DNA of 64,000 nucleotides from an uncultured bacterium (GCA_963749445.1 CAVVMJ010000007.1:9971-73970); one strand, 5' to 3'; counted from the first letter of the stretch, positions 1 to 57,392 are shown. The notes: a model not told the origin generated them from the letters alone. Translations and numbers: made by a program.

Positions 1-573
1 TAAACTTTCCAAAAAATCCCTGGCGTACCACTGCCGCAAATTCCAGAGATCAACGAAAGTCTGCACAGGCGGCGTCAGTTGGCCGAAAACTTTCAGGCGC
101 GGATCCGCGGCCAGGATCGCCAGATTGGGGAAGTCGGACGAGGCCAAAGGGAAGCGCTTGATAATCTCCGGCAAAAAATTTTCGTCCGCGTAAACGTAAA
201 CGTCCGCGTAATCGGCCGGAGTTAAACGGTACTGCCGGACAAACGCGCTGAACGCGCCATAAATTACTCCGGGCGGCATTAATCCCTCTATATCCAGGGG
301 CGAGTTTACCGAAACCTTTGTCTGGTATATTATATCATTCTCCAATTTGCGGTTGCTGGCCCAGAGCAGCAAAAACTTTTCCCTGTCCCGAACCCTAAAA
401 TTCCTGCCGGTTATTTCAATTGCCCCAGCTCTTTTTGGCAAGGCCATGGCGTTATTAACGGTGGATAGCGAAAAACCCAAACGGCCCGCCAGTTCCTTTT
501 GCGTAAAAACATACTGTTTCTTTTGGAAACAATCGTTTAATATTTCTCTCCAGATTTGTTCCTTTTTGAGCAT
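1..573 (-). CDS. TrmB-like HTH transcriptional regulator (3' end runs off window; no stop seen)
   Basis: Minus-strand ORF in frame from ATG at 571-573 to position 1 with no stop triplets. Translation MLKKEQIWREILNDCFQKKQYVFTQKELAGRLGFSLSTVNNAMA... has a winged-HTH-like N-terminus resembling the two other TrmB-family ORFs in the window. Confidence 0.5.
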   Translation of the reverse strand, partial: MLKKEQIWREILNDCFQKKQYVFTQKELAGRLGFSLSTVNNAMALPKRAGAIEITGRNFRVRDREKFLLLWASNRKLENDIIYQTKVSVNSPLDIEGLMPPGVIYGAFSAFVRQYRLTPADYADVYVYADENFLPEIIKRFPLASSDFPNLAILAADPRLKVFGQLTPPVQTFVDLWNLRQWYARDFLESL

Positions 574-816
574 ATCTGATATGTTTCGGTTTACTAACTA
601 TTTGATTAACCTCTTTTCTATTATATTAGAAACATAATAATTGGTCAAGTTACAAAATAATATGTGTAGTTTTTATGAGTGATATTATATTATTTGCCTT
701 ATATAAAAGGCTTTATTATTTAAATAGTTGATAAAAACCTTATTTTGTGCTATCATTGATGGTTAATTTCATAAAAGTACTTGTTTTGCTTGTGGTGGGC
801 AAAACCCTGTAAATTC

Positions 817-850
817 ATGCCCCCAAAGTCTTTTTGGGGGTTTTTGTTTC
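817..850 (+). terminator. intrinsic terminator-like hairpin (GCCCCCAAAGTCTTTTTGGGGG followed by T-run)
   Basis: Perfect 8-bp GC stem followed by TTTTTGTTT on the plus strand. Confidence 0.4.
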
Positions 851-1068
851 TCCCAAACAATTCGTCTGGCATTACCACCACTAATGCTTAATGAATTGCC
901 GGGTAGAAACACAAGGAGTTATTTCCGATAAATCCGACTTTCTGATTTATCTGACTGATTCCGAATTTACCGGGTTTTCCTCTCCATAAGTCGTCCCGAC
1001 TTAATACATTCAATTTATACGGGACATTATGAGAGGGCGATGGCAATATCGCAGCGGCAATTTTATAA

Positions 1069-1797
1069 TTGAGCCGCAGACGTGCACGGCGTTTCCCGTG
1101 CGGGCACCTTAACAATCGAGAAAACCAAATGTTAAAACTAACGTCTGACCCGGTTCGGACCATGGGTCCGAACAATCACTCGGTTGTGATTGGCGTTACG
1201 ATTATCGGCGACAGAAGAACGCCGGTGGTGAACGCAGACGTGCTCCTAAAGCTGGACTCACGAGATTGGGGCACACGAAAGACAAACCGTAATGGCCAAA
1301 TCGAACCGACGGAAGTGACTGCCATCCCCGATGGCAGTTTCAATGGCAACGGCAAACTGACGGTGGAGGCAATCCGCGTCGGCGCACCGGGGGATATGGA
1401 TCGCAAGATTATTGACATCCCAATGCCTCAACCCAAACCCGAACCCGCGGCAGTGGAAAGCATTGCCGTGACCAACGCGACTGAAGGCATTGTCTTGTGC
1501 TCCGGTTTCAACGGAACGCTCGAGATCGCCTTAGGGTTTGAGCAGGGAAAGAAGTCTCGCCCTGTCAGACTGAAAGTTTCGGCCGACCACAGGGTAGATT
1601 TTGCCAACGATAAAACGGGCACGCCTTTAGGCGCGAACGTAAAGTCGTGCGCGGCAACTACTTCGGCAGACGGAGTGCTCCGTCTGCGCGTCAACTTCCT
1701 GGCCTGCGGTCGGGACGAAGTCGAGATCAAAGTATCGGTCCCGAACTCGTCCAAAACTGCTACCGCCAAACTCAAATACAAAATGTTCGAAACTTAG
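1069..1797 (+). CDS. hypothetical protein, first gene of the GC-rich island (true start probably ATG 1129 or 1162)
   Basis: 242-aa ORF at about 60% GC against AT-rich flanks. No recognisable domain. The first codon of the ORF is TTG. Confidence 0.45.
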   Translation: MSRRRARRFPCGHLNNRENQMLKLTSDPVRTMGPNNHSVVIGVTIIGDRRTPVVNADVLLKLDSRDWGTRKTNRNGQIEPTEVTAIPDGSFNGNGKLTVEAIRVGAPGDMDRKIIDIPMPQPKPEPAAVESIAVTNATEGIVLCSGFNGTLEIALGFEQGKKSRPVRLKVSADHRVDFANDKTGTPLGANVKSCAATTSADGVLRLRVNFLACGRDEVEIKVSVPNSSKTATAKLKYKMFET

Positions 1798-1810
1798 GAG
1801 AGATAGACTG

Positions 1811-2788
1811 ATGACTCGTCACACACCCACATCCGCTGCACCGCCGCCGGCACCACCCGTGGCAACCGCACCGGCACCCCTCGCACCCGCAGTCATCCCG
1901 GCACAGGCACCCCTCGCACCCGCCACAATTCCGATCCCGGGAGGACACCACCTTAGCGACAAAACTTTGGTGACACTCGACATCCTCGTTGGAATCATCA
2001 CCGCTCTGTTCGGCCACGAAATCGGCCGCCAAGCGGGAAAGTGGTTCCAGGGAGCCAAACGCGGCTTGCAACAGATCGGTACGCCCGGGACAGCAACCGG
2101 GGTCACCATCTCAGGCAACGCACCCGCTCACATCGACCCCACCATCCATAGCGCCCTCCTAGGCATTGGACCGTGGGACGAAGCCGCCACTGGCATGACG
2201 CTGGGTGCTGCTTTCCGGCGGGCATTTCAACGCTTGTTGGAAGCAACCGGCACGCCAATGGAAGCGCCCATCCGCGCCGCGCTTGCCCAGCTGGAACAGA
2301 CTGTCGGCTTCATCGCCAACAAGCTCAACCAGCACCAGCGCGACTTCCTCCGCGAAGTCGTCGGCAAGCTCAAGACGGCTGAACTCCAGAACCTCTTCTG
2401 GCAGGACTTGGTCCTCGCCAGCAAGGACGAAACCGGTTTCATAAACTTTATGAAGGCAATGGGGATCGTCCACGAGCCGAACGAACTCACCCAGGAACTC
2501 GCGATTGCTATTGCCTATGGTTTCGAGCAGGCGAATGTGATCCGGGTCCAAATGGTGACCACGCTCACAGTTCGCTACGACGCCCGTTCCGACGCTGCCA
2601 GACAGCGCTGGTTCACCGCACATGGGCAACTCGCTCAAGGGCAGCCCGTTCAACAAAACGCGACGCCGTTCTGGCGCCGCCGCACGATATGGCTCGTCAT
2701 TGGACTGGCCATTCTGGCAGTGGCTCTATTTCTAGGCCTGCCCCACATCTACCTCAACCTTCGAAATTGGGAATGGAGTTGGAAATGA
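1811..2788 (+). CDS. hypothetical Pro/Ala-rich protein with C-terminal transmembrane anchor
   Basis: GGAG 8 nt upstream of the ATG. N-terminal PAPP/APLAP repeats and a C-terminal hydrophobic helix (IWLVIGLAILAVALFLGL). Confidence 0.55.
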   Translation: MTRHTPTSAAPPPAPPVATAPAPLAPAVIPAQAPLAPATIPIPGGHHLSDKTLVTLDILVGIITALFGHEIGRQAGKWFQGAKRGLQQIGTPGTATGVTISGNAPAHIDPTIHSALLGIGPWDEAATGMTLGAAFRRAFQRLLEATGTPMEAPIRAALAQLEQTVGFIANKLNQHQRDFLREVVGKLKTAELQNLFWQDLVLASKDETGFINFMKAMGIVHEPNELTQELAIAIAYGFEQANVIRVQMVTTLTVRYDARSDAARQRWFTAHGQLAQGQPVQQNATPFWRRRTIWLVIGLAILAVALFLGLPHIYLNLRNWEWSWK

Positions 2789-4197
2789 CGAATCTAGGAA
2801 GAATCGGAAGGTCGATCGGCACAATGGTGTCCGGTCTGGAAGCGAGGATTTTGGGCTGGATTAGCGCTCATGTCTCGCTAACGCCGCGCGCCTTCGGCAC
2901 GTGGCTTGACGAACACAATTTCATCCGGCTGGAAAACGGCGCGCCTGTCACGGACTACGCCGGTTTCTTCCGCTGGACACGCAACTCGCTCCTGTCCCTG
3001 ATGGCACTGACTTTATTGCTCGAAGCCTACACCATAGTCATCGGGACATTCAACAACACCCCGCTCGGCCTCGGCATAAGCTTAGGTTTCGGTGTGGCAG
3101 TGTTCGGCATCGCGTCGGTGGTCTGGATTTGGAGGACCATCGGCCGCGTCAACGAAGGCTTGGCCTGGATTTTCACTCTGGCCACTGCCACCCTTGCCCT
3201 AATTGGCTTAGGGACTCCGACTTACCAGTACTACGCCGCGGGGAACCTCGCCAAACTTTCGGCAAAAGATATCCAAAATCTGATCGCGGCAGGCATTCCG
3301 CGAATCTGGGCTATGGCGGGCTTTTGCCTGCTCAGCCTGATCGTTCTTCCGCTTACCTGGATGACCACTCTGGGGCCCGCCCTGCTGTCCCTGGCTTTCG
3401 CCAAGACGGCAGAAGGTCTGGAAACGGCGTGGACAGAAATCCGGAAAATATTCTCGCACGATAGGGAAGTAGCGGAAGCCGCTGCGGAAAACCTCCGCAA
3501 GCGGACAGAAACACAGACCGGCCTGCTCATGCTCACATGGGCGATCCTGGCGCTGTTTACTCTCTCTATTATTCTCTCGTCCACGGTCTGGGGGCCTTTC
3601 GGCGGCTTGGTCATCGGTATGACCGCAATCGTGCCGGTATGGATACGACGGTGGAATATGTTCTTGGGAACTTTCTTAACCAAGGCACTCTACGGCGTAG
3701 CCACAGGAGGGCTGATCTTTATCTGCTTCCTGTACGGCCTTTCACTCTCGGCCTTGATGCTGATTCCCGACCAAATTTCGCTCAACGCACTGCTAGTAAT
3801 CAAGTGGGCCAGCTTCCTAATCGGTCTCGCTTCGGCAGTTGGAGTGTTGTTTACCTCCACCACGGCCAGCAAACAGAACGAACTGGAAGCCGGCATGGGG
3901 GAAATTCAGCCCTACACCAGAAAGGTCACGGGTTTCGGGACTGATGGGCAGCCGATTTTTGAAGCTGTTCACCCCAAACCGACGTCCTTCGCCTGGGTCA
4001 AGCCCACGGTCTTCGGTGCTGTTGTCATCGCTCTGGTTGCCTATGTGCACTACAACGGCAACCCGCTTTCCGGCACCAGCCCGCTCAAGCTGGTCGCTTA
4101 CACAATGGTTGTCGGCTTGATCCTTATTCTCTTTGGGATCTTTTCCGGCGGCAAGACGCAAGCCACCCCTACACAGGAGGTGCGCCATGACCACTAG
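2785..4197 (+). CDS. hypothetical polytopic membrane protein (at least 10 predicted TM helices)
   Basis: ATGA start/stop overlap with the upstream gene and GGAG upstream. Long hydrophobic segments throughout. The longer track ORF from 2689 would overlap the previous gene by 100 nt. Confidence 0.5.
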   Translation: MTNLGRIGRSIGTMVSGLEARILGWISAHVSLTPRAFGTWLDEHNFIRLENGAPVTDYAGFFRWTRNSLLSLMALTLLLEAYTIVIGTFNNTPLGLGISLGFGVAVFGIASVVWIWRTIGRVNEGLAWIFTLATATLALIGLGTPTYQYYAAGNLAKLSAKDIQNLIAAGIPRIWAMAGFCLLSLIVLPLTWMTTLGPALLSLAFAKTAEGLETAWTEIRKIFSHDREVAEAAAENLRKRTETQTGLLMLTWAILALFTLSIILSSTVWGPFGGLVIGMTAIVPVWIRRWNMFLGTFLTKALYGVATGGLIFICFLYGLSLSALMLIPDQISLNALLVIKWASFLIGLASAVGVLFTSTTASKQNELEAGMGEIQPYTRKVTGFGTDGQPIFEAVHPKPTSFAWVKPTVFGAVVIALVAYVHYNGNPLSGTSPLKLVAYTMVVGLILILFGIFSGGKTQATPTQEVRHDH

Positions 4198-4771
4198 GAA
4201 AAAGTGCATCGTCATCGGCACTTTAATCGTCGGCGCAGCAGCCGCTGTGCTCCTCGGCTATTACGTAGGCATTGGCAAGTACGCGCCCAGCGAACAGGCG
4301 GCCTACAACCGCCTTCACGCGGCGAACAACTGGGAGTTTGAGGGGAAAACAAGCGATGTTGAAGACAAGCAAGTTCCCCTCGCCGACAAGGTTGCTCAAG
4401 TCAACGTCCTAGCCGTGCAAAAACGCACTCTGGACGCGCAAATCGGCCACCCGGAGCTGACCAACTGCCGGACGCAACCCGGCAAGGACAAGGACGGCAA
4501 GCCAATACTGGTGTCCGAGCCGTGCCCCGGCGGCGTCTCCGCGGCAATCTACAGGGGCAAAGAGGCCGTCATAACGGTCCAGCTCCTAACTTACAGCAAC
4601 GACGAACTCCCGCTCAATGTCGCACCGACCCTCGTCGGCGACGAGCAACTCGGTGGGACAGCAGTACCCCTGGGCAACAACCGGTTCCGCGTGTCGGGAC
4701 TGGTGTATGACCAGGAAAAAATCGCCGGCGGATACAAGATTCGCGTTACGCCGGAAGGAGGAGGAAACTAA
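4185..4771 (+). CDS. hypothetical membrane-anchored protein (N-terminal TM, extracytoplasmic domain)
   Basis: GGAGG upstream. The ATG overlaps the upstream stop by 11 nt. MTTRKKCIVIGTLIVGAAAAVLLGYYV signal-anchor. Confidence 0.5.
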
Positions 4772-5000
4772 TGAGAGACAGGATCCCGTGGCCTCGATCG
4801 ACAATTGACAGTAATGATTGCCCGACGAGGTGTAGGGAACCGACTTGGACAGGAGAGAAAAACAAATAATTAAGCAATTATTTCTCTCCCGTCCGTTTTA
4901 AAAGCCGTCATAGATTAACCTTATCATTCTCCCCCAAATCATGAGGAGATACCCCGCCGAAGGCGGAACAGAGAGGTTAAACTATGGCGGCTTTTAAATT

Positions 5001-5027
5001 GGCCACATTCCATTTTGGAATGTGGCC
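5001..5027. terminator. perfect 12-bp hairpin GGCCACATTCCA-TTTT-GGAATGTGGCC between convergent genes
   Basis: Palindrome seen directly. It lies between the end of the + island operon and the end of the - strand pilin-like gene. Confidence 0.45.
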
Positions 5028-5060
5028 ATCCCGAACGAAGTGAGGAATCTATTTAACTTT

Positions 5061-5765
5061 TTAATTAGTTGTCTGGGTTGTAGTGCCCCGCTGTAAAATG
5101 TCGGAGGTCGTTAAGGTGGAGGTAATAATCGTAACAATGGAGTAAGCCAAAATTACCACTACCAAACCGACAATCGCGTTAATCAAAGCTTTTTTGCCTT
5201 TTTCCGACTGCTCCTCATTGCCCGCGGACGTAATGTACCAAAACCCGCCGACAATTAACGCGACCACCGCTATCAATCCGGAAAGAATCAATAAATACTT
5301 TATAACGACAAAAATCAAATCCACCAAGGTTCCCGCGCCTGCCGGGCTGCCGGCAGTATAAGTATTTGCCGGTACGCAAAAGCCGTTGATTTGCACCAGT
5401 CGGCTGTCGCCGCAAGGGCCACTCACCGTGGAAGGGATGGTTGGATTTAAGTTCACTCCTCCGCTATTTTGATACGCAGTACAAACCGGATCGTTCGGGT
5501 AGCTGTTGCAACAAGCTAACCCGGTTAAGCCCGAAGAGGCGCAGTCAACTTGCTTTGGCCCGACAATTCCGCCGGCAACGCAGGCACTTCCTGAATAAGT
5601 GCATCCCACTGTATTTGCGCACTGGATCGGATCAGCAATACCGGTACAATTATCGGCTTTAGCCAACAAAGGCCCACATGCCAAAAAACTAAAGGCCAAA
5701 GCAAAAACTGCAAAAAACACAAGTCCTGTCAGTTTATCAAATTGCAATTTGCTATTTTTTTTCAT
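5061..5765 (-). CDS. secreted Cys-rich surface protein with C-terminal VirB2/TrbC-like two-helix pilin module (paralog 1)
   Basis: Signal peptide and 16 Cys in the ectodomain. C-terminal motif IVGGFWYITSAGNEEQSEKGKKALINAIVGLVVVILAYSIV is shared with five neighbouring ORFs. Confidence 0.6.
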   Translation of the reverse strand: MKKNSKLQFDKLTGLVFFAVFALAFSFLACGPLLAKADNCTGIADPIQCANTVGCTYSGSACVAGGIVGPKQVDCASSGLTGLACCNSYPNDPVCTAYQNSGGVNLNPTIPSTVSGPCGDSRLVQINGFCVPANTYTAGSPAGAGTLVDLIFVVIKYLLILSGLIAVVALIVGGFWYITSAGNEEQSEKGKKALINAIVGLVVVILAYSIVTIITSTLTTSDILQRGTTTQTTN

Positions 5766-5774
5766 CGCGAAAAT

Positions 5775-6173
5775 TTAAACCCCGAGCCCGCCGGTAATGG
5801 TATTTTCAATGACCGTAATAATTGTATAAGCCAAAATAATAATCACAATGCCGATAATGGCATTGATTAAAGTTTTTTTGCCTTTTTCCGACTGCTCCTC
5901 GTTGCCGGACGCGGTAATGTAATAGTACCCGCCGATAATAATGAACAGCACGGCAATGGCGCCGGCAAACAGCAGCATCAGCTTAATGACATCATAAATC
6001 AAATGCGGCAAATCCGGCTCCTGGGACAGCCCGCCGATGCCGAACAAATCCCTTAAACCGCCTATGCCGGTCAGCCCCTGGCCGACCGCGCTGGTCTGGG
6101 CAAAAACCATAGCCGGCAAAAATAGCAAAGCGGAAGATATCCAGGCAAATATTTTTTTGACTGTTTGTTTCAT
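5775..6173 (-). CDS. VirB2/TrbC-like pilin-family protein (paralog 2, minimal form)
   Basis: Signal peptide followed by IIGGYYYITASGNEEQSEKGKKTLINAIIGIVIIILAYTII. Confidence 0.6.
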   Translation of the reverse strand: MKQTVKKIFAWISSALLFLPAMVFAQTSAVGQGLTGIGGLRDLFGIGGLSQEPDLPHLIYDVIKLMLLFAGAIAVLFIIIGGYYYITASGNEEQSEKGKKTLINAIIGIVIIILAYTIITVIENTITGGLGV

Positions 6174-6214
6174 AAGATTGTGCTTCTAATTATTAAAAGT
6201 TAATTAAACACCAA

Positions 6215-6392
6215 TCAGAATGTCGGAATGTCGAATTAATCGGAGGGGTCATTTCCAAAATTTTTCCAATTTGTTATTAACCGATTAATTTGTTCAGAAA
6301 CTAAGACCAATCTTTATTGCCTGTATACGTCCAACTACCCGACCTCCGATATTCTGATTTATCCGATTATTCCGACTTCTGATTCCAAACTC
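6215..6392. repeat. MITE-like intergenic repeat module with about 17-bp terminal inverted repeats (AATCAGAATGTCGGAAT / ATTCCGACTTCTGATT)
   Basis: The internal 150 bp is homologous to 7947-8030 plus 8345-8470. Related fragments (GATTTATCCGA, ATTCCGAC) also occur at 930-990. Confidence 0.45.
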
Positions 6393-6548
6393 AGGGGCAG
6401 AACCAGTTCCGCCCGAGAGCCCGGAGCCGAAATTTTCGGCCGACCGTTTAGTGTCATTGCGAGGAGGCCGGGGCTTTGTCCGGCCGACGCGGCAATCCCT
6501 TCTTTTGATAAGATTGCTTCGGCTGCTACTGCAATGACACTAAATTTT

Positions 6549-6941
6549 TTAGCTGGATGACTTGGAAACCAAACCGGCCACCACGTTAACGATTACGTAG
6601 GACAAAAGAATAATGACAATACCGATAATGGCGTTAATGGCCGTGTTCTTGCCTTTTTCCGCGGTTTCCTCATTGCCGGCGGAGGTAATGTACCAGAAGC
6701 CGCCAATGATTAAGAACAACACGGCAATACCAAAGGCGATCCCTAGGAGCCAATTGATGATATTTTTAATCAACGCGTTAGCATCGGTAGTGCCGCAGTT
6801 TAATCCGGTTCCGGAGCAGTTAGGAGCGGTCAGCTGCGCCTGTCCAAAATGCAATGGGACAAACACAAAAATCGCCACCAACACCAGCTCAGCGACCACT
6901 AACCAATTGATTTTCTTGATTATTTGTTTCAAGCTGTTCAC
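6549..6941 (-). CDS. VirB2/TrbC-like pilin-family protein (paralog 3)
   Basis: Signal peptide, CSGTGLNCG ectodomain, then IIGGFWYITSAGNEETAEKGKNTAINAIIGIVIILLSYVIV. Confidence 0.6.
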   Translation of the reverse strand: MNSLKQIIKKINWLVVAELVLVAIFVFVPLHFGQAQLTAPNCSGTGLNCGTTDANALIKNIINWLLGIAFGIAVLFLIIGGFWYITSAGNEETAEKGKNTAINAIIGIVIILLSYVIVNVVAGLVSKSSS

Positions 6942-7061
6942 CCCCTCTCGTTTCCCTTTCCCTCTCCCTCGGGGAGAGGGCAGGGTGAGGGTTAATTTGC
7001 TGACATTATTATACTACGATTCCTAATTTTTGGCCATCTCTATCTTTTTGGCACACGGTTG

Positions 7062-7946
7062 TCATCTCGGGCTCGGCCCAGGCGTAGGATAGGTTAAATT
7101 CTTATTGGTGGCTTGGCCGCAAACAAAAGTTTGCACCTCCTGCCCGGGCTGTATGGGTTTCTGGGAAGCCATGGCCACGGCCCAGCCGCTTGCGTTTTGC
7201 GTATAGTTTGATTGCATATAATCCGCGCCGTCAACTTTTACGGTAAAAGAGATAGGACTTACATCGCCACATATCATCGCAATCTGTGCCAATAAATCTC
7301 TTTCGCCAGTAGAAATTGTGGAATTCACTAACAGGCCGGGATTTTTGGGCGTAATGACAATATTGTCCCCCAAATAATTTTTATTGGTGCTCCTAGCATT
7401 ACTGACATCCTGTAAACTGATGCCCGCGAACATCGGGTTGGAATAAGCATTGCCTCCTTGCGTACCCGCGACCGCCGGATTGGTGTTGGTATTAGCCGAC
7501 GGATTAGTTACTGCCGGGGTATTGCCATTGCCGGTACTGCCCCCGGTCAACCCGCTGGTTAGCAAATTAACCGTGATGCGGACTATGGCATAAGCCATAA
7601 TAATTACGACCAAACCGATAATCGCGCTGGTAATGGCCTTGCGGCCTTTTTCGGATTGCTCCTCGTTGCCCGCGGCCGTCAGGTACCAAAAACCGCCCAA
7701 AATTATGAACACTACGGCCACCAAGGCGGCAAATTCCAGCAATAACTGGATAACATTGCCCACGGCCTGCTGGGGCGTACATAGTTTGGGGAGGCCTTCA
7801 ATGGTATTTACCGGTTTGCCGTTAACGGTAATTTGAAACTGGCCAAAAAACTTGTTGCAATCAAATTGCGCCGACGCCGGCATGGCCAACAGCCAGCTGA
7901 AAAGGATTATCACCAGAAAAAATTGAAGCTTATGCGTTTTCTTCAT
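7062..7946 (-). CDS. VirB2/TrbC-like pilin-family protein with 170-aa C-terminal extension (paralog 4)
   Basis: Signal peptide. The conserved module ILGGFWYLTAAGNEEQSEKGRKAITSAIIGLVVIIMAYAIV is in the N-terminal half, followed by a Gly/Asn/Thr-rich linker and a C-terminal domain. Confidence 0.55.
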   Translation of the reverse strand: MKKTHKLQFFLVIILFSWLLAMPASAQFDCNKFFGQFQITVNGKPVNTIEGLPKLCTPQQAVGNVIQLLLEFAALVAVVFIILGGFWYLTAAGNEEQSEKGRKAITSAIIGLVVIIMAYAIVRITVNLLTSGLTGGSTGNGNTPAVTNPSANTNTNPAVAGTQGGNAYSNPMFAGISLQDVSNARSTNKNYLGDNIVITPKNPGLLVNSTISTGERDLLAQIAMICGDVSPISFTVKVDGADYMQSNYTQNASGWAVAMASQKPIQPGQEVQTFVCGQATNKNLTYPTPGPSPR

Positions 7947-7965
7947 AATTTTTCGGAAAATCGGA

Positions 7966-8307
7966 TTAATCGGAATTATCGGATCTGAAATTCTTCCAAT
8001 TGGTTATTAGTCGATTAATTTGCTTGGATACTATTTTATAGTGCTTGATTAGTGCTTCGCAGGTTTCGGGTTTAATATTCGGGAAACCAATGAGTTTAAT
8101 TTGTCTTAGATGGGTTATAACTTCATCCGAAGATCCCAACGCAATCCGCAAGTAACGCTTGAATTCTTTTTCCGAATTTCGTTTGGCAAAACCTTCGGTA
8201 ATTTGCGCCGGAACTCCTTTTGCCGCGCCCGTTAACTGGTCTTTTGTCCGAAACTCATTTTTTGGCAACAAATCTGCTAACCGGTAAATCGGCCTAATCA
8301 ACTTCAT
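7966..8307 (-). CDS. four-helix-bundle protein (23S rRNA IVS protein family)
   Basis: The sequence ...GAAKGVPAQITEGFAKRNSEKEFKRYLRIALGSSDEVITHLRQ... matches the four-helix-bundle family. The gene sits inside copy 2 of the repeat module. Confidence 0.55.
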   Translation of the reverse strand: MKLIRPIYRLADLLPKNEFRTKDQLTGAAKGVPAQITEGFAKRNSEKEFKRYLRIALGSSDEVITHLRQIKLIGFPNIKPETCEALIKHYKIVSKQINRLITNWKNFRSDNSD

Positions 8308-8394
8308 TGACCTTCTGATAAACCTCTAAATCCTCAACATCCTTTATCATAATTAAAAAATTAAGACCGGTTTTTATTGCCTATATCCATCCAA

Positions 8395-9978
8395 CTATCC
8401 GACCTCCGATTTATCCGACATTCCGACATTCCGACATTCCGACATTCCGACATTCCGATTTATCCGAATCATACTCGTACTCTGGCTGACGTTTTGGATT
8501 TGCGTCTGCAAAATATATTGGACAATGGCAATGATGCTAAAGGACAGCAAAGCAATGGCTAAACCCAAAATGGCCCAGGTGATGGTCTTGCGCGCGGCCG
8601 TGACCGCCTCTTCGTTGCCCTGGGACATGACGTAGCGGAAGCCACCGATGACTATAAAAGCCACGGACCACAAAGCAATGACGCCCAAAAAGGCGCGCAT
8701 TATCAACAGCAAAGTCGCAGTCAAAGAATCCACGGGCAGGGGGTTATATAAACAATTGTTGGCATCGGGACCGGTACAATTAGCGGTGGAAGGAGTGCCG
8801 GCGGCAGAACATGTCCCTCCCGTGGCGGCTGAACATATCTGCCCGGAACTGCAAGTCCCCTGCTGCCCGGGACCTCCGGTACAAGAAGCACCAGGCGCGA
8901 CAGCCGCGGTCGGACTTACAGTAATATTAAAAGTAGTCGGTCCAACCCCATTTAACGCTGTGGTTCCGTCAGCGGCCACCGGAGTCGCGACAATTGAATT
9001 AACGCCGCTAATATTAAAACCGGAGTTTGCGTCCAAGGTAAAATTTTGGCTCCATTGTTTTGAACTGTCAAGTTTTACATCTTGATTACCCGCGTGCACC
9101 AATAAAATGCCGCCACTGGGCATATTGGTGGCAGAAATTGTTATGGTAGTTCCGGGCGCATAAGTACTATTGGCCGCAGGCGGCGATAAAACAACCGTCG
9201 GCGCGTTACCACTTGCGCCTGTGGCCTGAGTTAAAGTATAAGTTTGATCATAAATTCCCTTGCCGCTACTATCAGTCAGGACAAATCTTAACTTGTTATC
9301 CCCATTGCTAATAAATCCATTTGTGGCATTTACCGCTATTTGGTTGCCGCCTGAGTATATTGCAACAAAGTGATTATTATCGTTGACATAAATGTTTCCC
9401 TGCGCACCGGGCGGAAAATCTGTATAAGTAATTTTTAAGGTATCGCCAATTTTAGCGGTAGGCGGTGAAACTGTAAAGTTAAACCCCTCTCCTAAAGGAT
9501 TATTAGAAACATTTAGCTGTTTTCCCCAATTTTTTGTATCTCCCAAGTCACCCAAACTTGAATGAACATCCAAATAGTAAGGAAAAATGTAATCTGACCC
9601 TGACTTGGTAACATCACTCCAACGGGAAAAATTTGATAAATTAAAAGGGCAGTCAATATTAACATTGTTAGGAACAGGCGGGCTGACCTGGCACCTGGCC
9701 AAATACCAAGGGCTACCACTGATAGGGGCAATAAAATCAAACTCCATGATATTATTGGCACTACAGCCGTTTGTATTAACTATGGTATTAAATTTTGCCG
9801 AATCGCCTTTATAAATTCTGGTTGGAACTGCCTCCATAGAGGTAATTTGCACCTGGCAAATTCCTGCGGCTATTGCAGATTTTATGAATCCACGCCCAAA
9901 AACCCCGGCCAGCATCAATAAAATTATGACGCTGCTTTTTAGTGCGCTTAATATTTTATTGTACTTGTTCTGCGTCAT
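8395..9978 (-). CDS. large secreted surface protein with C-terminal VirB2/TrbC-like pilin module (paralog 5). The 3' end reads through the octamer repeat
   Basis: Signal peptide, about 400-aa beta-rich ectodomain, Cys/Gly-rich linker, then FIVIGGFRYVMSQGNEEAVTAARKTITWAILGLAIALLSFSII. The last 30 or so aa are encoded by the repeat module. Confidence 0.55.
   Translation of the reverse strand: MTQNKYNKILSALKSSVIILLMLAGVFGRGFIKSAIAAGICQVQITSMEAVPTRIYKGDSAKFNTIVNTNGCSANNIMEFDFIAPISGSPWYLARCQVSPPVPNNVNIDCPFNLSNFSRWSDVTKSGSDYIFPYYLDVHSSLGDLGDTKNWGKQLNVSNNPLGEGFNFTVSPPTAKIGDTLKITYTDFPPGAQGNIYVNDNNHFVAIYSGGNQIAVNATNGFISNGDNKLRFVLTDSSGKGIYDQTYTLTQATGASGNAPTVVLSPPAANSTYAPGTTITISATNMPSGGILLVHAGNQDVKLDSSKQWSQNFTLDANSGFNISGVNSIVATPVAADGTTALNGVGPTTFNITVSPTAAVAPGASCTGGPGQQGTCSSGQICSAATGGTCSAAGTPSTANCTGPDANNCLYNPLPVDSLTATLLLIMRAFLGVIALWSVAFIVIGGFRYVMSQGNEEAVTAARKTITWAILGLAIALLSFSIIAIVQYILQTQIQNVSQSTSMIRINRNVGMSECRNVGMSDKSEVG
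8415..8454. repeat. octanucleotide microsatellite (CCGACATT)x5
   Basis: Five perfect tandem units. Translated on the minus strand they form the C-terminal tail (RNVGMSECRNVGMS) of ORF 8395..9978. Confidence 0.9.
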
Positions 9979-9990
9979 ACTTTTTGATTT

Positions 9991-10485
9991 TTACTTCCCT
10001 GCCGGCGCGATGCCTTCTTCCACGTTATAGGAATTTGGGACGCAGGTATAACTGCTCGGGTTGGTCAAAGTAATGTAAGTCCACGGACTGGCAAAATCAA
10101 TTTTGCATTTGGACATTAATAGAATATTAACTGCGGTATTGACGAACATATACGCGGCCACGACCACAAAAAATCCTATGAATACCTGGGTTAACGCTCC
10201 CTTGTGTTTGGTAATGTCCTCCTCGTTGCCGCTGCTCGCCACCAGCCAAAAAGAATGTTCAACAATCTTGTAAACCGCGTAAAGCCCGGCCATGGCTATC
10301 AGCCAGTTGGTCACCCGCGCCACCCCGTAAAAAGCGTCCAAAACTCCGCAGGGATGATTATCCGTCGGCCCGCTGCCGCCGCAGGGAACTAGTCCAGCGG
10401 CATGGACGAAAAATGGCATAGAAAAAGCTATTGTTATTGTTAAGATTACCGCAACTAAAAGCCTTTTTTGTTTCAAGATAATCAT
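9991..10485 (-). CDS. VirB2/TrbC-like pilin-family protein (paralog 6, divergent)
   Basis: Signal peptide, CGGSGPTDNHPCG, then LVASSGNEEDITKHKGALTQVFIGFFVVVAAYMFV. Confidence 0.5.
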   Translation of the reverse strand: MIILKQKRLLVAVILTITIAFSMPFFVHAAGLVPCGGSGPTDNHPCGVLDAFYGVARVTNWLIAMAGLYAVYKIVEHSFWLVASSGNEEDITKHKGALTQVFIGFFVVVAAYMFVNTAVNILLMSKCKIDFASPWTYITLTNPSSYTCVPNSYNVEEGIAPAGK

Positions 10486-10540
10486 TTTTCTACAATAACT
10501 CTACCACATTTTTGGCAAATTTTCAATTTTTGTCGCTTTG

Positions 10541-10622
10541 TTGAAATTGCGAGGGCGTGCATCCGACCGAAGCAATCCCCAAAAAATAACCGGATTGCTC
10601 CGGCCACCCTCGCAATTTCATA
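10541..10622. repeat. palindromic repeat element, copy A (GAAATTGCGAGGG...CCCTCGCAATTTC)
   Basis: Terminal inverted arms plus an inner GAAGCAATCC/GGATTGCT pair. Three longer copies lie at 28142, 43438 and 48535. Confidence 0.6.
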
Positions 10623-10727
10623 AAAAACACAACTTTGCAAAAACAACAACTAGTTTCCCAATTTCCAATTTTTCTGTCGTTTTGGCTTTGCATTGGAAAT
10701 TAGTAATTGGGTATTGGAAATTCGCCA

Positions 10728-12024
10728 TCACTGCCCCGCAGTGATTGCGGCCGCTTGTTGTTCGGCTTGACTAAGCGAATCCTGCGCGCTCAACCCGTTT
10801 AAAATTACGTTATCAATCGCCTTGCCGAAAATGTTGTCCATCTTGGCCTGGTCCGGGCGGTAAAAAGATTTAGCGGTAAGGTTGGCGTTGGCAAACACGC
10901 CGATGTCCGGGTCCGGAATTTGCAGCTCAATAAGGTCGCGGCGCGAAGACGGCACTTTGTTTTGCGCGTAATATTGGTCCAGGCTGTCCTTGCTCGTTAA
11001 AAATTTTACCAAATCCCAGGCTGCGGCCAGTTCTTACTCTGTTTGCTCACCACCTCTCCCCAGTAGTTGGCAAAATTCACGGATGGGTTATTCAAATCCG
11101 GCTGCGGCACGCCGGCCACGTCAAAATTCAAATTGGGAGATTTTTGTAAGATGGTGGCGCGACTATAGGAATAGCTGTACAAAAACGCGGCGCGGCCGTT
11201 GGCAAAAGCGTCAATGGAATAATCGCTTTGGGCGTTCCAGTTGTAATTAGGGCTGGAAGGATTGGCAAAAGATGTGTAAAAACTCAAAGCACTGACTCCG
11301 GGATTGGTAAAATTGCCGTTTTTCTGAACCGGGTCGGCAAAAGTCGGCTGCATGCCGGTATAAGGCATGGTGCCCTGCTGCAGCATCATCAAATACAAAA
11401 TATCCACCGCGCGATTGACATTGGCGTTAGTACCTAATGCTACGCCGCTTTGCAAAAAATAACCGTGGCTGTCCTGCCGCTTGATTTTCTGCACATCCGT
11501 TGCCAGCTCGCTCCAGGTCTTCGGCGGCGTGGCAATCCCCGCGCTGCCCATCATATCCTTGTTATAATACAGCGCCAAAGAATCCACGGACATGGCCGCG
11601 CCGTAAATTTTTCCTGGCTGGTAAAATCGTTGACCACCGCGTCCACAAAGGTATCCTTAAAATCCTTCAAAGTAAAAATGGAAGCCGGCGAAGGCGTGGC
11701 TTTGTCCAAATACTGCGGCAGCCAGGCGTTGTTGATGGAAAAAATATCCGGCCCGTTGCCTGCGGCCAAAGCGTTCAGCAAATCCTGCTGGTAAGTGTTA
11801 ATGTCTTTTTTGGTGTAGACGATGGTAATATTGGGATTTTTTTGGCGGTAAGCGTCGAGCAGCGGCTGCAGGCTTTGGCTGTCCATAAACGGATTCCACA
11901 TGGTCAGGGTAATATTCCGCTGAACCGTAGTTGTCCCTCCCCCGCCGCATCCCGCCGCAAGCAAACTAAGGCCGATGGCGGATAAAAGCAATTTTGGTTT
12001 GAAAAATTTTCTTTTTGGTTTCAT
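10728..12024 (-). pseudogene. ABC transporter substrate-binding lipoprotein (sugar-binding family) disrupted by two frameshifts
   Basis: Three consecutive minus-strand ORFs (11551..12024, 11006..11593, 10728..11012) translate to one SBP with a lipobox LAAGC. One frameshift is in the AAAAATTT run near 11588 and one is near 11010. Confidence 0.55.
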
Positions 12025-16486: not shown

Positions 16487-18799
16487 TTAATCACCTTTGG
16501 TCAGCCTAATCCTAAAAAGAGATTTTAAATGGTTCTGATATAATTCCTTATATTTAAAAGCTTTTTTTGCATCTAGAATTATAATTTGTTTCAATTTGGC
16601 TGTATAAAAAAATCGCAGTAAACTTTGAAAGTCATACATGCTCCGCGGCAAGAAAAACTCCCTATCCGGATCAGCAGACTTTTGAGCCAAAGCTTTGCTA
16701 TAAGGATCAGCTACTTTCATACTTGGCCACTGCGAAAAAATGACGGTTTTTGCCTGCAATTGGGCCACCGGCTGGACCTGCTGGACGGAGCGCAAAAAAT
16801 TTAAAACCCCGCTGCTGCTTATTAAAAGCAAGCTGTCTTTATGGATACTGAAATTGCGGAACAGTCTGTTGCTTCCTCCGCCGCTGCGTTCAACCAATAA
16901 AAACGCGCGCTTTTTCAGTTCTCCGTAATATTCTTTGTAAAGCTTCGTAATTTCCGCCGGCGAGTCAAACACCATTACTGCCGGCAAGTCGGCTTTGCTT
17001 AAAATTTTGACGGGATTTGAATCGACGGCCGGCGTAATCCGGCAAATCGGCTGATGATGCAGAATTCCGACTAATTTGCTTCGTAATTTTTTTACCGGCC
17101 ATGGTATCAAAGAAAATTTCCCCATACCGAGGCGATTAATAAAATAGTCGAGCGCGACTTGTTCTCCTTGCGGTTCAATGACGCAAACCTTTTCAAAGCC
17201 TGAAAAACTTTTGCCAACGATGCCGCCAATATCTAGCGGCAAGGAATGGAAACTGCAGGAACGCTCCCCAAAACTTATCCATTTTACTTCCGTAGGCCTA
17301 TCCTCAAAAAAATCCTTGAGGTTACTGGCAAAGTCCGTGAGGCTTTGGAGCTTTAAACTTTGGTTTGCCGATGATAACTTTTCCGTAAAATTTTCCGCGG
17401 CACTCATAATCTTTAAAAATTCTTCGGAATTTCTTAATTCATCCGTTACGCTCACTTCGCCCCAGCCTTTGTTAAATTTTAACAATAGCGCGTTGGTCAA
17501 ACCAAAAAATAAATCCGCGTCCGAAAGCAATCGGCTGATAATATCTCTATATTCGGCATCGCCAAAGCCGGTTTCCGGATCGTAAACGGTTTTTAATAAA
17601 TAAGATAAAAAGCCCCAGCTGCTGCGCTGCCCAATAGTAGCCGTGATTACGGCCTCAAAATCACCAAGACCGATAACAATCAGGCCGCGCTGGCGGAATA
17701 GCTCGGAACTTTTCAATTCTAAAAAAGTTTGCTGGTCGCAACATAACACCCTATCGGGTAATTTCTCCGGCAGTTGCCGGCCTGAAACCAAACCCTGAAA
17801 CTGACCGCCGAAAAATGACAGATTCAAATCCAACAAGCACTCCGTTTGCCAATTTGTGGCCTGCCAAACCAAAAGCTTCATTAAAAACCTAGCCTGCTCC
17901 GGATTTTGGATGTCCTGATGAAGCAGTACTTCAAATTTTTGGCGGTCAAACATATGCCGCGGCTGGAAAATTCCCCGCGCCAAATTTTGCCGCCATGTTT
18001 CCAAAACCTGATAGCGCTTGGGTACCACAATCAGCAGTCGCTCGGCTGTCCGGCTGACAATTTGCCCGATAATATCCTCAACGGGAACAAAAGGGTCAAC
18101 GATGTAAACCGTTTTGTCCTGCATAACAACAGAGCCCAAGCGTGATTTAGCCACTGATATTTTTTTGACTGGTTTGGCTGGCTCTAATTTGTAGGGTTTG
18201 ATTTTTGCTTTTAACAAATCCGACCACGGAGCCTTGACGCGTTCCGCCAGTCCGGTAATCTGGGTCTTAGCTTCGTTGGGCAAACTTTGATAAACGCCGA
18301 GCAGCCGCTCCAGCAACTCCATGGATGCCATGGCGTCCGCCAAAGCGCGGTGCGCGTTTTTGTGCGAAATTTTAAAAATACTCGCCAAATTTTCCAAATT
18401 GTAACTATGATGCGTAGGCAGCAAAAACTGCACCAAGTCCATAGTGTCAATTACCGGCCCGAAAAATTTTATGCCGCACTTTTGCAAAAACTTAATGTCA
18501 AAACCCACGTTATGCCCAACTATCGCCGCCGTCCCCAGCTTCCCCTGCAAAAAAAACAGCTCGTCCGAAATCGCGCCGCCTTTTTCTAGGTCGGCTGATG
18601 TGAGTCCAGTCAGTCCCAAAACATGGTGCGACACCTCGCCCTTTGGCTTAAACACCCTGTCCCATTTTTCAACAATCCGAAATCCGAAATCCGAAATCCG
18701 AAATCCGGCTATCCCCACTTCCAAAATCTCATTGGTTACCGGGTCAAACCCGCTCGTCTCAATATCCAAGCTGTAATAAATTTTTTCTTGATTTGCCAT
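16487..18799 (-). CDS. DnaQ-like 3'-5' exonuclease domain protein with a large C-terminal domain of unknown function
   Basis: DEDDh motifs YYSLDIETSGFDP, GHNVGFDIKFL and HRALADA. No Walker A seen in the 600-aa C-terminal part. Start chosen at MANQEK (18799), which avoids overlap with the upstream gene. The track ORF extends to 18844. Confidence 0.55.
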   Translation of the reverse strand: MANQEKIYYSLDIETSGFDPVTNEILEVGIAGFRISDFGFRIVEKWDRVFKPKGEVSHHVLGLTGLTSADLEKGGAISDELFFLQGKLGTAAIVGHNVGFDIKFLQKCGIKFFGPVIDTMDLVQFLLPTHHSYNLENLASIFKISHKNAHRALADAMASMELLERLLGVYQSLPNEAKTQITGLAERVKAPWSDLLKAKIKPYKLEPAKPVKKISVAKSRLGSVVMQDKTVYIVDPFVPVEDIIGQIVSRTAERLLIVVPKRYQVLETWRQNLARGIFQPRHMFDRQKFEVLLHQDIQNPEQARFLMKLLVWQATNWQTECLLDLNLSFFGGQFQGLVSGRQLPEKLPDRVLCCDQQTFLELKSSELFRQRGLIVIGLGDFEAVITATIGQRSSWGFLSYLLKTVYDPETGFGDAEYRDIISRLLSDADLFFGLTNALLLKFNKGWGEVSVTDELRNSEEFLKIMSAAENFTEKLSSANQSLKLQSLTDFASNLKDFFEDRPTEVKWISFGERSCSFHSLPLDIGGIVGKSFSGFEKVCVIEPQGEQVALDYFINRLGMGKFSLIPWPVKKLRSKLVGILHHQPICRITPAVDSNPVKILSKADLPAVMVFDSPAEITKLYKEYYGELKKRAFLLVERSGGGSNRLFRNFSIHKDSLLLISSSGVLNFLRSVQQVQPVAQLQAKTVIFSQWPSMKVADPYSKALAQKSADPDREFFLPRSMYDFQSLLRFFYTAKLKQIIILDAKKAFKYKELYQNHLKSLFRIRLTKGD
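18675..18708. repeat. heptanucleotide tandem repeat (ATCCGAA)x4 plus partial, inside the exonuclease ORF
   Basis: Encodes GFRISDFGFRI in the N-terminal exonuclease domain. Confidence 0.85.
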
Positions 18800-18809
18800 A
18801 ATTGTTACT

Positions 18810-19547
18810 TTAGGCAGGTAAACTGATTTGCCAAAGCGCTTCAAATAAGTAACCCAAATTCTGGTTCAGCTCCGCGCTTTCAACAATCATGCCAAAATTT
18901 TCTTTTGTTGAAGAAATAATCCCAACTTTATCGTCATAGATATATAAGGTCATGGCAAAAATCATATTTGCTGGGGCGTAACGCAATAACCTTAATTCAG
19001 AAGGGTCGGTCGGCCAAGTTTCTTTTACATCTTTTTGCTTGCTTCTAACAACCCTCAAAGCATAACCTGATTTAATTCTCCGCGCAACATATTCTTTCAT
19101 AAATCTTTCGCCGGGGATTTTAAATAAGTCAACTATCGATAACACGCCTCTTATATTTTTGTCCGGGGTTGAAATTGTATCTTCTAAAACCGTTTTAATT
19201 CCCTCCACTCCTTCGTAAAAAGAAGTTTTCGGCTTAGACTTTAAAGTATTGTAAACAGACTTAAGTTCCGGCAACAAGCTGTCAAAAGTTCGTTGTTTTT
19301 CGGCCAAATTCCGTTTAATTTTTTCCGGGTCATTGGCGATATAATACCGGACTTTATGTTTTTCATATGCCCCCACTAATCCTTCTTCCGCGAGTTTTTC
19401 CAAAAGATCGTAGGCAGTCGGCCTGGCCACCTTGGCTCTCAAAGCAATCTCGTGGGCCTTGGCCTGCCCCATTTCCAAAAGCGCCAAATAAACCCGCGCT
19501 TTTTTATCGTCCAAACCGAATTCCTTTAAGTCTTCTTTTAATGCCAT
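18810..19547 (-). CDS. TrmB-family transcriptional regulator
   Basis: MALKEDLKEFGLDDKKARVYLALLEMGQAKAHEIALRAKVARPTAYDLLEKLAEEGLV winged-HTH plus TrmB-like C-domain. The track ORF extends to 19685. Confidence 0.65.
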   Translation of the reverse strand: MALKEDLKEFGLDDKKARVYLALLEMGQAKAHEIALRAKVARPTAYDLLEKLAEEGLVGAYEKHKVRYYIANDPEKIKRNLAEKQRTFDSLLPELKSVYNTLKSKPKTSFYEGVEGIKTVLEDTISTPDKNIRGVLSIVDLFKIPGERFMKEYVARRIKSGYALRVVRSKQKDVKETWPTDPSELRLLRYAPANMIFAMTLYIYDDKVGIISSTKENFGMIVESAELNQNLGYLFEALWQISLPA

Positions 19548-28141: not shown

Positions 28142-28272
28142 AGTGGTGAAACTCCCGCAACTCTAAAATGAATTTGCGAGGAGCCAGGGCTTTATCTGGC
28201 GACGAAGCAATCCCAAAATTTGAATGGGATTGCCGCGCCCCTCTCTGCATCGGGGCTCGCAAATTCTGTTAT
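28142..28272. repeat. palindromic repeat element, copy B
   Basis: GAATTTGCGAGGAGCC...GAAGCAATCCC-loop-GGGATTGCCGCGCCCC...GCTCGCAAATTC. Confidence 0.65.
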
Positions 28273-41617: not shown

Positions 41618-42398
41618 TCAGGTGATAAATTTTTTCAAAATCTCTGCAAACTCCTCCGGCTGGTCCAAAAAACTAAAATGCCCGGCGTTTTTTAGAATTG
41701 CGAATTGCGAATTGCGAATTAACGAATTCATTTTTTTGCCAAAACTGACAGGGGTGTCCGCGTCGTTTTCACCGCTGATAATTAAGGTTGGACATTTTAT
41801 ATTTTCCATATCGGACGATAAATCTTCGCCTGTGATGTTAACAAACGTTTTTTGCAGTTCCGGCGTAGCCAGGTAATCTTCCGCGTCGATTTTTTGGTAG
41901 ATTTTTTTCCTCAATCCTTGCATAAATGCCGACTTAAAAAACGGTTTTGCGATTTTTGCCGCGGACCGATAAAAATTTTTCTTGGGTGTGTCCATGGCAA
42001 ACCCCGCGCTGTCCACCAAAACCAATTTTCTGACAAGTTCCGGATGCGCAGATGACAATTTTATCCCAACCCTTCCCCCAAACGAATGACCGATAACAAT
42101 TACGTCAGTCAAATCCAATTTTTTTATAAACTCCGCCACCACTTCCGCATAATCCCCCACCGTCATCGGCAACTTCAGGAGCCTGTGATCCGCCAAACCC
42201 GGGTAAATCTATAGCAAACAATTGACGATTGACGATTGACGATTGACTCATCACGTTCGCCCAAACTTCCTTGCTGCTCCGCCATCCGTGCAAAAACAGC
42301 AGAGTCCCCGCGCCCTGGCTTTTATCCTCGCTGTAGCTGATTAACAAATCCTTGATGATTATCTGCTTATCCATATCTATATAATACCATTGCTTCAT
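41618..42398 (-). CDS. alpha/beta hydrolase, split by an apparent frameshift within 42105-42200. It also carries two in-frame 7-bp x3 tandem repeats
   Basis: N-terminal part LLFLHGWRSS...AIDLPGFGGSQAPE, C-terminal part MTVGDYAEVVAEFIKKLDLTDVIVIGHSFGG. (GACGATT)x3 at 42222-42242 and (GAATTGC)x3 at 41696-41716. Confidence 0.65.
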
Positions 42399-43402: not shown

Positions 43403-43437
43403 TACAAAATTCAAATTGCAAAACTTAAAACAAGCTG

Positions 43438-43560
43438 AAATTGCGAGCCCCGATGCAGAGGGGCGCGGCAATCCCATAAAATTGACGGGATTGCTTCGCC
43501 CGCCTTCGCTGAAGCTTCGGCGGATAAATCGGATGCACTCCTCGCAATTTCTGATGGAAA
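43438..43560. repeat. palindromic repeat element, copy C (inverted orientation)
   Basis: GAAATTGCGAGCCCCGATGCAGAGGGGCGCGGCAATCCC-loop-GGGATTGCTTCGCC...CTCGCAATTTC. Confidence 0.65.
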
Positions 43561-48534: not shown

Positions 48535-48658
48535 GATGAAATTGCGAGGAGCCGAGGGCTTTTTATCTGGCGACGAAGCAATCCCGATACTTAACTGGGA
48601 TTGCCGCGCCCCTCGCTGCATCGGGGCTCGCAATTTCCGGGCATTTGGGATTTTGCAA
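48535..48658. repeat. palindromic repeat element, copy D
   Basis: GAAATTGCGAGGAGCCGAGGGC...GAAGCAATCCC-loop-GGGATTGCCGCGCCCCTCGCTGCATCGGGGCTCGCAATTTCC. Confidence 0.65.
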
Positions 48659-57227: not shown

Positions 57228-57392
57228 AAATAGTAGCGTTCCCAAATATACAAATCAACACAAATATACAAATTACTGACAGTGCTATAGATTTGTATAT
57301 TTGTTAAAATTTGTATATTTGCGATTACTACAATTATAGCATTTGAAAGGATTTGAACGCAAGCCGCCGGAGTGCTACAATACCAAAAGCTT

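Follow-up and report, generated by a model that had tools for sequence, protein, structure and literature searches.

A probable intervening-sequence-type cassette with a four-helix-bundle gene, resident outside rRNA genes in a pilin array of an uncultured bacterium

What is a repeated module doing upstream of two pilin genes, and why does one copy of it hold a gene that is missing from the other? The question is posed by a 64,000-nucleotide stretch of DNA from an uncultured bacterium (GCA_963749445.1, CAVVMJ010000007.1:9971-73970; hereafter the window, at its full length), in which the module lies at 6213-6392 (copy A) and 7947-8470 (copy B), in two spacers of an array of six pilin paralogs, p1 to p6. 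With a probability of roughly 70%, we read it as a selfish cassette of the intervening-sequence (IVS) type that resides outside ribosomal RNA (rRNA) genes, in the spacers of a six-pilin array of the Candidate Phyla Radiation (CPR; Patescibacteria-type). The cassette consists of a gene of the PF05635/TIGR02436 family (S23p, or 23S_rRNA_IVP) between complementary arms of degenerate tandem 7-8-nt units; copy B, on the minus strand like all genes of the region, p1-p6 included, is the full-length element, and copy A is an internal-deletion derivative.

That the two stretches are copies of one module, as the initial annotation had it, is borne out by their collinear alignment. A repeat search across the 64-kb window pairs 6223-6303 with 7953-8033 (75%) and 6293-6350 with 8353-8410 (83%). 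In gapped alignment, copy B 8410-8353 corresponds to copy A 6350-6293 (48/58 identical) and copy B 8022-7951 to copy A 6292-6221 (55/72 identical), so that 6221-6350 is collinear with 7951-8022 plus 8353-8410 at 76-83% identity overall, with copy B 8023-8352 facing a single 330-nt gap in copy A; copy A is also short of about 41 nt (some five octamers) of the copy B array. Within the 64 kb there are two occurrences, and no more, of a 28-nt core, AAATTAATCGG-TAATAAC-AATTGGAA (6264-6291 and 7994-8021, minus strand; 0 expected), and likewise two of a 21-nt leader block, ATCGGAGGTCGGNTAGTTGGA (0.01 expected). Two independent assemblies, L112 and L059, reproduce the sequence: L112, a Logan contig that shares its source sample with L059, matches window 2775-6481, copy A included, at 100% identity, and L059 is identical to window 7000-8443, most of copy B, except for one 1-nt indel. 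The repeated module is thereby confirmed as real. Both copies have terminal inverted repeats, a feature of miniature inverted-repeat transposable elements (MITEs). Those claimed for the short copy (6215-6392) exist, in an imperfect form built of repeated units (6213-6246 against 6345-6378): 6213-6227 matches 6345-6359 (15 nt, 93%) and 6230-6244 matches 6362-6376 (15 nt, 87%). In copy B, 7961-7976 matches 8452-8467 (16 nt, 94%).

The gene in copy B is what the initial annotation took it to be, an IVS-type four-helix-bundle gene: the window open reading frame (ORF) at 7966-8307 on the minus strand, 113 codons long, matches PF05635 (E 3.6e-17; 62.9 bits against a Pfam cut-off of 33.8). Because an extra base at 8315 shifts the frame and L059 has no such base, the real gene is 7966-8350 (minus; 127 codons, 385 nt); its first 11 codons are present upstream, from an ATG at 8350, in a different frame in this assembly, and in L059 the gene is intact. 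The single-base indel at 8315 reflects a polymorphism between strains or else an error of assembly. The intact allele (P0107) matches TIGR02436 (E 4.3e-22; 78.4 bits against a cut-off of 24) and the structure PDB 2GSC (E 4.5e-10). That structure, XCC0516, is a homopentamer with a four-helix-bundle fold, an assembly that the window protein may share, to judge by sequence similarity. A database search returned 106 homologues, the closest mostly of about 127 aa, and the aligned full-length ones begin MIKDVEDLEVYRRSMKLL; a C-terminal SKQINxLIKxWKNF is conserved among 19 aligned homologues, and close homologues end in SDxSD tails encoded by the arm. Exact-protein look-ups of the window 113-aa ORF, of P0001 and of p3 gave no record.

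The core lies inside this gene. It encodes QINRLITNWKNF, the conserved C-terminus of the family, and in a tblastn comparison of the protein with the window, copy A 6239-6304 corresponds to residues 92-113 (77% identity, E 9e-7); the copy A remnant reads LVSEQINRLITNWKNFGNDPSD, with a stop codon in the same place as in copy B and in frame. The differences between the two cores are all synonymous (CGG/CGA, TTA/CTA, ACA/ACC, AAA/AAG, TTT/TTC), and over the last 22 codons 8/22 differ synonymously, which points to past selection on the protein and not on a DNA-binding motif. The core is the 3' end of the four-helix-bundle gene, not the promoter or regulator site for which it had been taken. It also follows, since copy A holds the in-frame 3' end of the gene, that copy A is a 330-nt internal deletion of the full element. 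The change in size is a deletion in copy A, not an insertion in copy B, and the earlier picture of a 330-bp insertion that split an older module must be given up: the gene measures 385 nt and has the core within it. Copy A derives from a second gene copy that was once functional.

Around the gene, copy B shows the complete architecture. Its 5' arm (8396-8470, minus), placed by Tandem Repeats Finder (TRF) and by folding, is made of GTCGGAAT octamers with degenerate flanking units and includes 5.6 perfect octamers at 8414-8458 (TRF period 8, 100% matches); its periodicity score of 0.91 is the highest among 43 loci. A 45-nt leader (8351-8395, minus; GGATAGTTGGATGGATATAGGCAATAAAAACCGGTCTTAATTTTTTAATT), homologous to the leader of copy A, runs from the arm to the start codon and contains a TAATTT hexamer resembling a -10 element, which ends 7 nt before the ATG. 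The 3' arm (7950-7990, minus), an inverted repeat of the 5' arm in degenerate ATTCCGAT-type units, with period 9 at 7959-7984 (TRF), runs over the last 8 codons (FRSDNSD) and the stop of the gene, to within 4 nt of the p4 ATG. In the minimum free energy (MFE) fold the two arms of copy B pair with each other. Copy A, likewise on the minus strand, retains arms, leader and the last 22 codons, and has lost 330 nt (the start codon and about 105 codons) and about five octamers. Its 5' arm (6345-6392), delimited by alignment and fold, is a shorter array, AATCAGAAGTCGGAATAATCGGATAAATCAGAATATCGGA, that pairs with 6213-6246 in both MFE and centroid folds. There follow a leader remnant (6305-6344) from which the start codon has been deleted and in which TAGTTT is retained, within the 58-nt block that matches copy B 8353-8410; a coding remnant (6236-6304) of 22 codons and stop that includes the core; and a 3' arm (6213-6246), recognized by its inverted repeats and by folding, that overlaps the end of the coding remnant.

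The same build recurs in many genomic contexts. A homologue scan with one genome per species gave 58 loci, nearly all from Patescibacteria (loci and assemblies alike bear the prefix L here). The loci that were read directly have inverted degenerate arrays of short units bracketing the gene, with units such as TCGGA, TCAGA, TCAGC, TTCGGTT and others according to lineage, and in more than 40 relatives gene and arms form one unit. When each 5' flank of 43 loci was paired with the 3' flanks of all 43, mean duplex energy was -56.4 kcal/mol with the locus's own 3' flank versus -37.0 kcal/mol with those of other loci; the own partner ranked in the top 3 of 43 for 22 loci (median rank 3), many of them outside rRNA. 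The arms therefore co-vary as whole units, also at many non-rRNA loci. They are periodic as well, with a mean best self-match of 0.62 versus 0.48 in controls, mostly at period 7-8. In 8/31 loci an extended -10 motif (TGNTANNNT) precedes the start codon, its end 6-8 nt away (exactly 6 nt in 7 of them), and in 18/31 a TANNNT hexamer ends 3-12 nt before the start.

Some of these cassettes sit within rRNA genes: four in the 16S gene (L003, L006, L007, L009), directly after ...GCAAGTCGAACG and before AGTGGCGAACG, two in the 23S gene (L005, L018), and three in or just past the 3' part of 16S (L013, L016, L026). Two lie 111-135 nt upstream of tRNA-Thr (L008, L015); two others lie between rpsP and a KH-domain gene in the rpsP-trmD-rplS operon (L060, L105), and near-identical cassette proteins, at 74-75% identity, are found in the rpsP operon. 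Nine are in type IV secretion system (T4SS)-pilin arrays (L001, L002, L004, L012, L014, L104 and L106-108), and L109-111 represent a further, different context. The association with pilin paralogs under which the initial annotation described the module is thus not specific to the element, since rRNA genes, tRNA neighbourhoods and the rpsP operon harbour it as well. The rpsP/KH site, as an empty site, is absent from the 64-kb window. In a scan of public metagenomes with the leader motif GGAGGTCGGNTAGTTGGA, all 42 of 42 matches were due to chance, with no extended similarity and no four-helix-bundle gene, and no further copies of the subfamily were found. As a separate observation, the L003 16S gene that carries a cassette near its 5' end also holds a group I intron at 5357-5566 (Rfam RF00028, 76.9 bits), so that insertions of different kinds can share a single rRNA gene.

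Within pilin arrays, the same spacer is filled in one genome and empty in another. By best-hit analysis, L001, L002, L004 and L106 carry orthologues of all six pilins in the same order, p6-p5-p4-[element]-p3-p2-p1, and the NTP-transferase and SBP genes farther upstream are common to L106 and the window as well. In these four loci the p5|p4 junction is at most 20 nt, and the p3|p2 spacer, of about 55-155 nt, holds only terminator-like hairpins and no element. The window shows the converse, with the element at p5|p4, the remnant at p3|p2 and nothing at p4|p3. The alignment of the window's p4|p3 spacer with L106 begins at a conserved TATAAT and CCCTCTCC hairpin, the very point at which the L106 element stops; in L106, L001 and L104 alike, the element ends just before a conserved TGnTATAAT. 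Identity between copies A and B (76-83%) also exceeds that of the best-conserved block in the adjacent p2 and p4 (64%), which argues against simple co-duplication with the pilin genes.

Several observations weigh against reading the module as a mobile, IVS-type cassette. Movement is deduced from patterns of presence and absence alone, which loss of p4 or a rearrangement could partly mimic, and flank reading at filled and empty sites gave no convincing target-site duplication: a 5-nt TATGA that flanks copy B at either end is at chance level, and the filled and empty sites are strongly diverged. The arms of copy B rank only 18th of 43 as each other's partners, because a long regular array pairs with many other arms. 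Fold energies of copies A and B are marginally better than those of shuffles (z -1.78 and -1.76). In this assembly, the +1 frameshift at 8315 shortens the gene to the 113-codon ORF, and the TAATTT hexamer of copy B is weak and went unseen in a consensus scan. The 64-kb window has no RNase III gene (rnc), and RNase III cleavage of the cassette is here pure inference. Co-orientation of the relatives with their neighbours (30/39 upstream, 28/38 downstream) is not higher than the background of 173/213; a dependence of the element on host transcription, one candidate that we considered, is therefore unsupported.

Could the module instead be a shared cis-regulatory unit of the pilin paralogs, with the octamers or the core as protein-binding sites for p2 and p4? 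Each copy immediately precedes a pilin gene of like orientation, direct-repeat arrays are typical of regulator sites, and the TAnnnT hexamer present in both leaders means that copy A could fortuitously drive p2. We nevertheless consider this unlikely, given that the core is coding sequence with synonymous-only differences, that arms and gene occur as a unit within rRNA genes, at tRNAs and in the rpsP operon, and that neither the orthologous p2 and p4 of L001, L002, L004 and L106 nor the window's four other paralogs have the module upstream. A little more can be said for a history without mobility, in which a unit of module plus pilin was duplicated in tandem and one copy later decayed, since the pilins are tandem paralogs (187-nt blocks 64-70% identical) and both modules stand 5' of a paralog; this, too, we hold to be improbable. 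The modules remain 76-83% alike, non-coding parts included, against 64% for the best p2/p4 block; the array is older than the insertions, with p1-p6 in the same order in L001, L002, L004 and L106 and another spacer occupied there; and cassette proteins 74-75% identical sit in the rpsP operon.

The idea of a mobile miniature element survives in part: the short copy does resemble a miniature non-autonomous element, being small and having terminal inverted repeats, if imperfect ones, and the window has a solo arm-like fragment at another place. A classical transposase-dependent MITE, hit in copy B by a four-helix-bundle passenger gene, is still quite improbable, less credible than either of the two preceding explanations. 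The short copy holds an in-frame 3' fragment of the gene and so derives from a gene-bearing element, gene and arms form one unit in more than 40 relatives, neither a transposase nor any other mobility enzyme was found in the unit (the 127-aa four-helix-bundle protein is the sole product of the full-length form), no clear target-site duplication is seen, and there are only two copies in 64 kb, the metagenome matches to the leader motif all being chance. Least probable of all, and by our estimate very nearly negligible, is a role of the gene as an Avd-like accessory factor of a diversity-generating retroelement (DGR) acting on the pilins. Avd proteins do share the fold and the Pfam neighbourhood (PMC10053308 mentions PF05635), and surface proteins are typical DGR targets. 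The window has no template repeat/variable repeat (TR/VR) pair, however, its direct repeats of at least 40 nt being pilin blocks, the module and an unrelated hairpin family only; no reverse transcriptase stands beside the gene in the window or beside the relatives' copies; and PADLOC and PHROGs gave no matches.

The IVS-type cassette is best understood by comparison with known systems. The IVS of Coxiella burnetii has 3-4 tandem GACAGAT heptamers, variable in number, just before the S23p start, and a 28-bp terminal stem, and is excised by RNase III (PMC4990558); 23S_rRNA_IVP ORFs have been catalogued in 16S and 23S insertions of CPR bacteria (PMC11270868), and a likeness between IVS ends and mobile-element inverted repeats has been pointed out (PMC2743711). 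The window cassette shares with the rRNA IVSs of Leptospira, Coxiella burnetii, Xanthomonas, Brucella and CPR bacteria the same protein family, complementary termini on either side of the ORF, tandem 7-8-nt repeats placed shortly before the start codon as in Coxiella, and the ORF decay and deletions that are common there; its close relatives lie inside 16S and 23S genes of other Patescibacteria. It differs in that its copies occupy pilin spacers, Rfam finding no rRNA in the window; in that copy B extends an upstream ORF with an arm-encoded tail; and in that copy A is reduced to arms and 22 codons. RNase III excision has been demonstrated for rRNA IVSs and would apply to the window cassette by analogy. 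The window element thus fails the defining criterion of an IVS, residence in rRNA, and shares every other feature tested. A literature search found no description of the cassette, arms included, outside rRNA genes. PF05635 genes as such are widely annotated outside rRNA.

Other small repeat families share parts of this design. Correia elements (CREE) of Neisseria and the enterobacterial repetitive intergenic consensus (ERIC) elements, also called intergenic repeat units (IRU), of enterobacteria are small inverted-repeat units between co-transcribed genes that form hairpins in the mRNA; Correia hairpins are cut by RNase III, and both families can carry promoter elements and have size variants that arise by internal insertion or deletion. 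They are non-coding and occur in tens to hundreds of copies, Correia elements with a TA target duplication. The window module is likewise a small intergenic inverted-repeat unit with size variants, but its full form encodes a protein, its arms are tandem arrays, and it is represented by two copies and a fragment in 64 kb. Copy A stands to copy B as a MITE to its parent, with ends kept and interior deleted; unlike in MITEs, that parent lacks a transposase, the flanks show no clear target-site duplication, and degenerate tandem arrays stand in place of unique terminal inverted repeats. Avd proteins of DGRs have a related pentameric four-helix-bundle fold and belong to the same family neighbourhood (PMC10053308; 2GSC-type); in contrast to Avd/DGR systems, the window shows no reverse transcriptase, no TR/VR pair and no target of the initiation-of-mutagenic-homing (IMH) type.

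How would such a cassette live in an operon? By analogy with rRNA IVSs, the transcribed arms would pair into a stem of about 30-40 bp to be cut by RNase III, and the cut would free the cassette RNA and part the p5 message from that of p4. RNase III is encoded in a related genome, L060. The gene may often have a promoter of its own, an extended -10 set some 6 nt ahead of the start codon, and so yield a leaderless mRNA, as the spacing of the motif in relatives suggests. At the DNA level the cassette would spread without a transposase, possibly by recombination aided by the repeat arms, and copy A may persist as a gene-less hairpin that serves as a processing or stability element between p3 and p2. 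More tentatively, and with the odds clearly against it at present, S23p cassettes may constitute a distinct transposase-less class of mobile elements in CPR bacteria that move among rRNA genes, tRNA and ribosomal-protein operons and pilin arrays, with a pentameric protein that reads the arms. Such a pentamer would recognize about five tandem 7-8-nt arm units, as RNA or single-stranded DNA, and recognition of the arms would promote the element's own processing, maintenance or copying.

The pilin array itself comprises six CPR-type T4SS_pilin (PF18895) paralogs, in ORFs between 5061 and 10485 on the minus strand, that score 28-54 bits against a Pfam cut-off of 26.6: p6 (9991-10485), p5 (8395-9978), p4 (7062-7946), p3 (6549-6941), p2 (5775-6173) and p1 (5061-5765). 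Copy A occupies the p3|p2 spacer, directly upstream of p2, and copy B the p5|p4 spacer, p4 starting 19 nt past the stop of the four-helix-bundle gene; the other four paralogs are without the module. The p5 ORF runs about 25 codons into the 5' arm of copy B (tail MIRINRNVGMSECRNVGMSDKSEVG, then a stop), its stop being displaced by the arm, and its orthologues end about 14 residues past IIAIVQ. Phase variation through octamer copy number was rejected as a main function, since the array lies past the complete pilin domain of p5. A scan of 5000-10700 for consensus promoters and terminators gave counts equal to those of shuffles, and only the promoter-like sites of p3 and p6 were useful. p3 has its own TATAAT promoter-like site at 7008-7036, and its 5' leader (6942-7036) contains, between that site and the start codon, a CCCTCTCC ... 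GGGAGAGGG hairpin common to L106 (at about 4400-4500). Farther upstream, an SBP_bac_1 gene is split into overlapping ORFs at 11006-11593 and 11551-12024 (minus), which suggests a frameshift; the L106 counterpart is a single 433-aa ORF.

Repeats akin to the arms are present elsewhere in the window. The unit TCYGATTTATCYGA occurs 6 times, versus 0.07 expected, and one occurrence, at 941-954, belongs to an arm-like array on the plus strand at 915-975 (TTTCCGATAAATCCGACTTTCTGATTTATCTGACTGATTCCGAA), which also contains TCTGATTTATCTGA, of the same unit family. The fragment that had been reported at 930-990 is therefore real as an array, at about 915-975, and stands without partner arm or gene: no gene and no partner was found for it, including in a search of 4700-5100 at the other edge of the adjacent GC-rich block, and its fold is no better than shuffles. 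We regard it as best read as a solo relic, and its position at the edge of that block may be coincidental. The block (1000-4800; 55-60% GC against about 46% around it) follows immediately after the pilin array on the opposite strand and holds four plus-strand ORFs of 212-502 aa, one of them a multi-pass membrane protein and none with a Pfam match; its junction with p1 is identical in L112, so it is probably no misassembly. Window 1-5100 shows no synteny with relatives.

Three further kinds of repeat were observed. At 58568-58638 and 57243-57321 lie gene-less intergenic hairpins made of inverted tandem 8-9-nt arrays like the cassette arms (GATACGAAT x5 / ATTCGTATC x3, and CAAATATA / ATTTGTAT), which fold far better than shuffles (z -4.4 and -7.1); L001 has a similar array hairpin upstream of a tRNA. 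A second family of structured repeats, about 100 nt long and laid out as ATTGCGAG ... GC-rich hairpin ... CGCGGCAATCCC ... GGGATTGC, is found at 6447-6544, 28191-28266, 43436-43552 and 48562-48637; the copy in the interval from p3 to copy A has a fold z of -5.3, a 76-nt stretch is 91% identical in two of the copies, and one adjoins tRNA-Arg. Finally, perfect heptamer arrays at 18674-18707, 41695-41720 and 42221-42247 (AATCCGA x4.9, GAATTGC x3.7 and ATTGACG x3.9) sit in long ORFs of the minus strand, one of 785 aa (16487-18844) and one hydrolase-like, and appear in the translations as short odd inserts. Each may be a solo arm insertion or a coding tract prone to slippage.

It is about three decades since IVSs and their S23p ORFs became known, and to our knowledge neither the function of the S23p protein nor the spread of IVSs has so far been explained. 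The window and its relatives present one cassette architecture in two settings, inside rRNA genes and in ordinary operon spacers, and the second setting offers filled and empty orthologous sites as well as a deletion derivative. IVSs are thereby recast as general mobile cassettes, and the window copies become concrete substrates for tests of RNase III processing and of the binding of the protein to its arms. For annotators there is a warning: what looks like a short conserved motif ahead of a CPR surface-protein gene can be the relic of a four-helix-bundle gene. If the tentative view of a distinct transposase-less class is right, rRNA IVSs would be merely the best-tolerated landing sites of such elements and gene-less hairpins like copy A their decay products.

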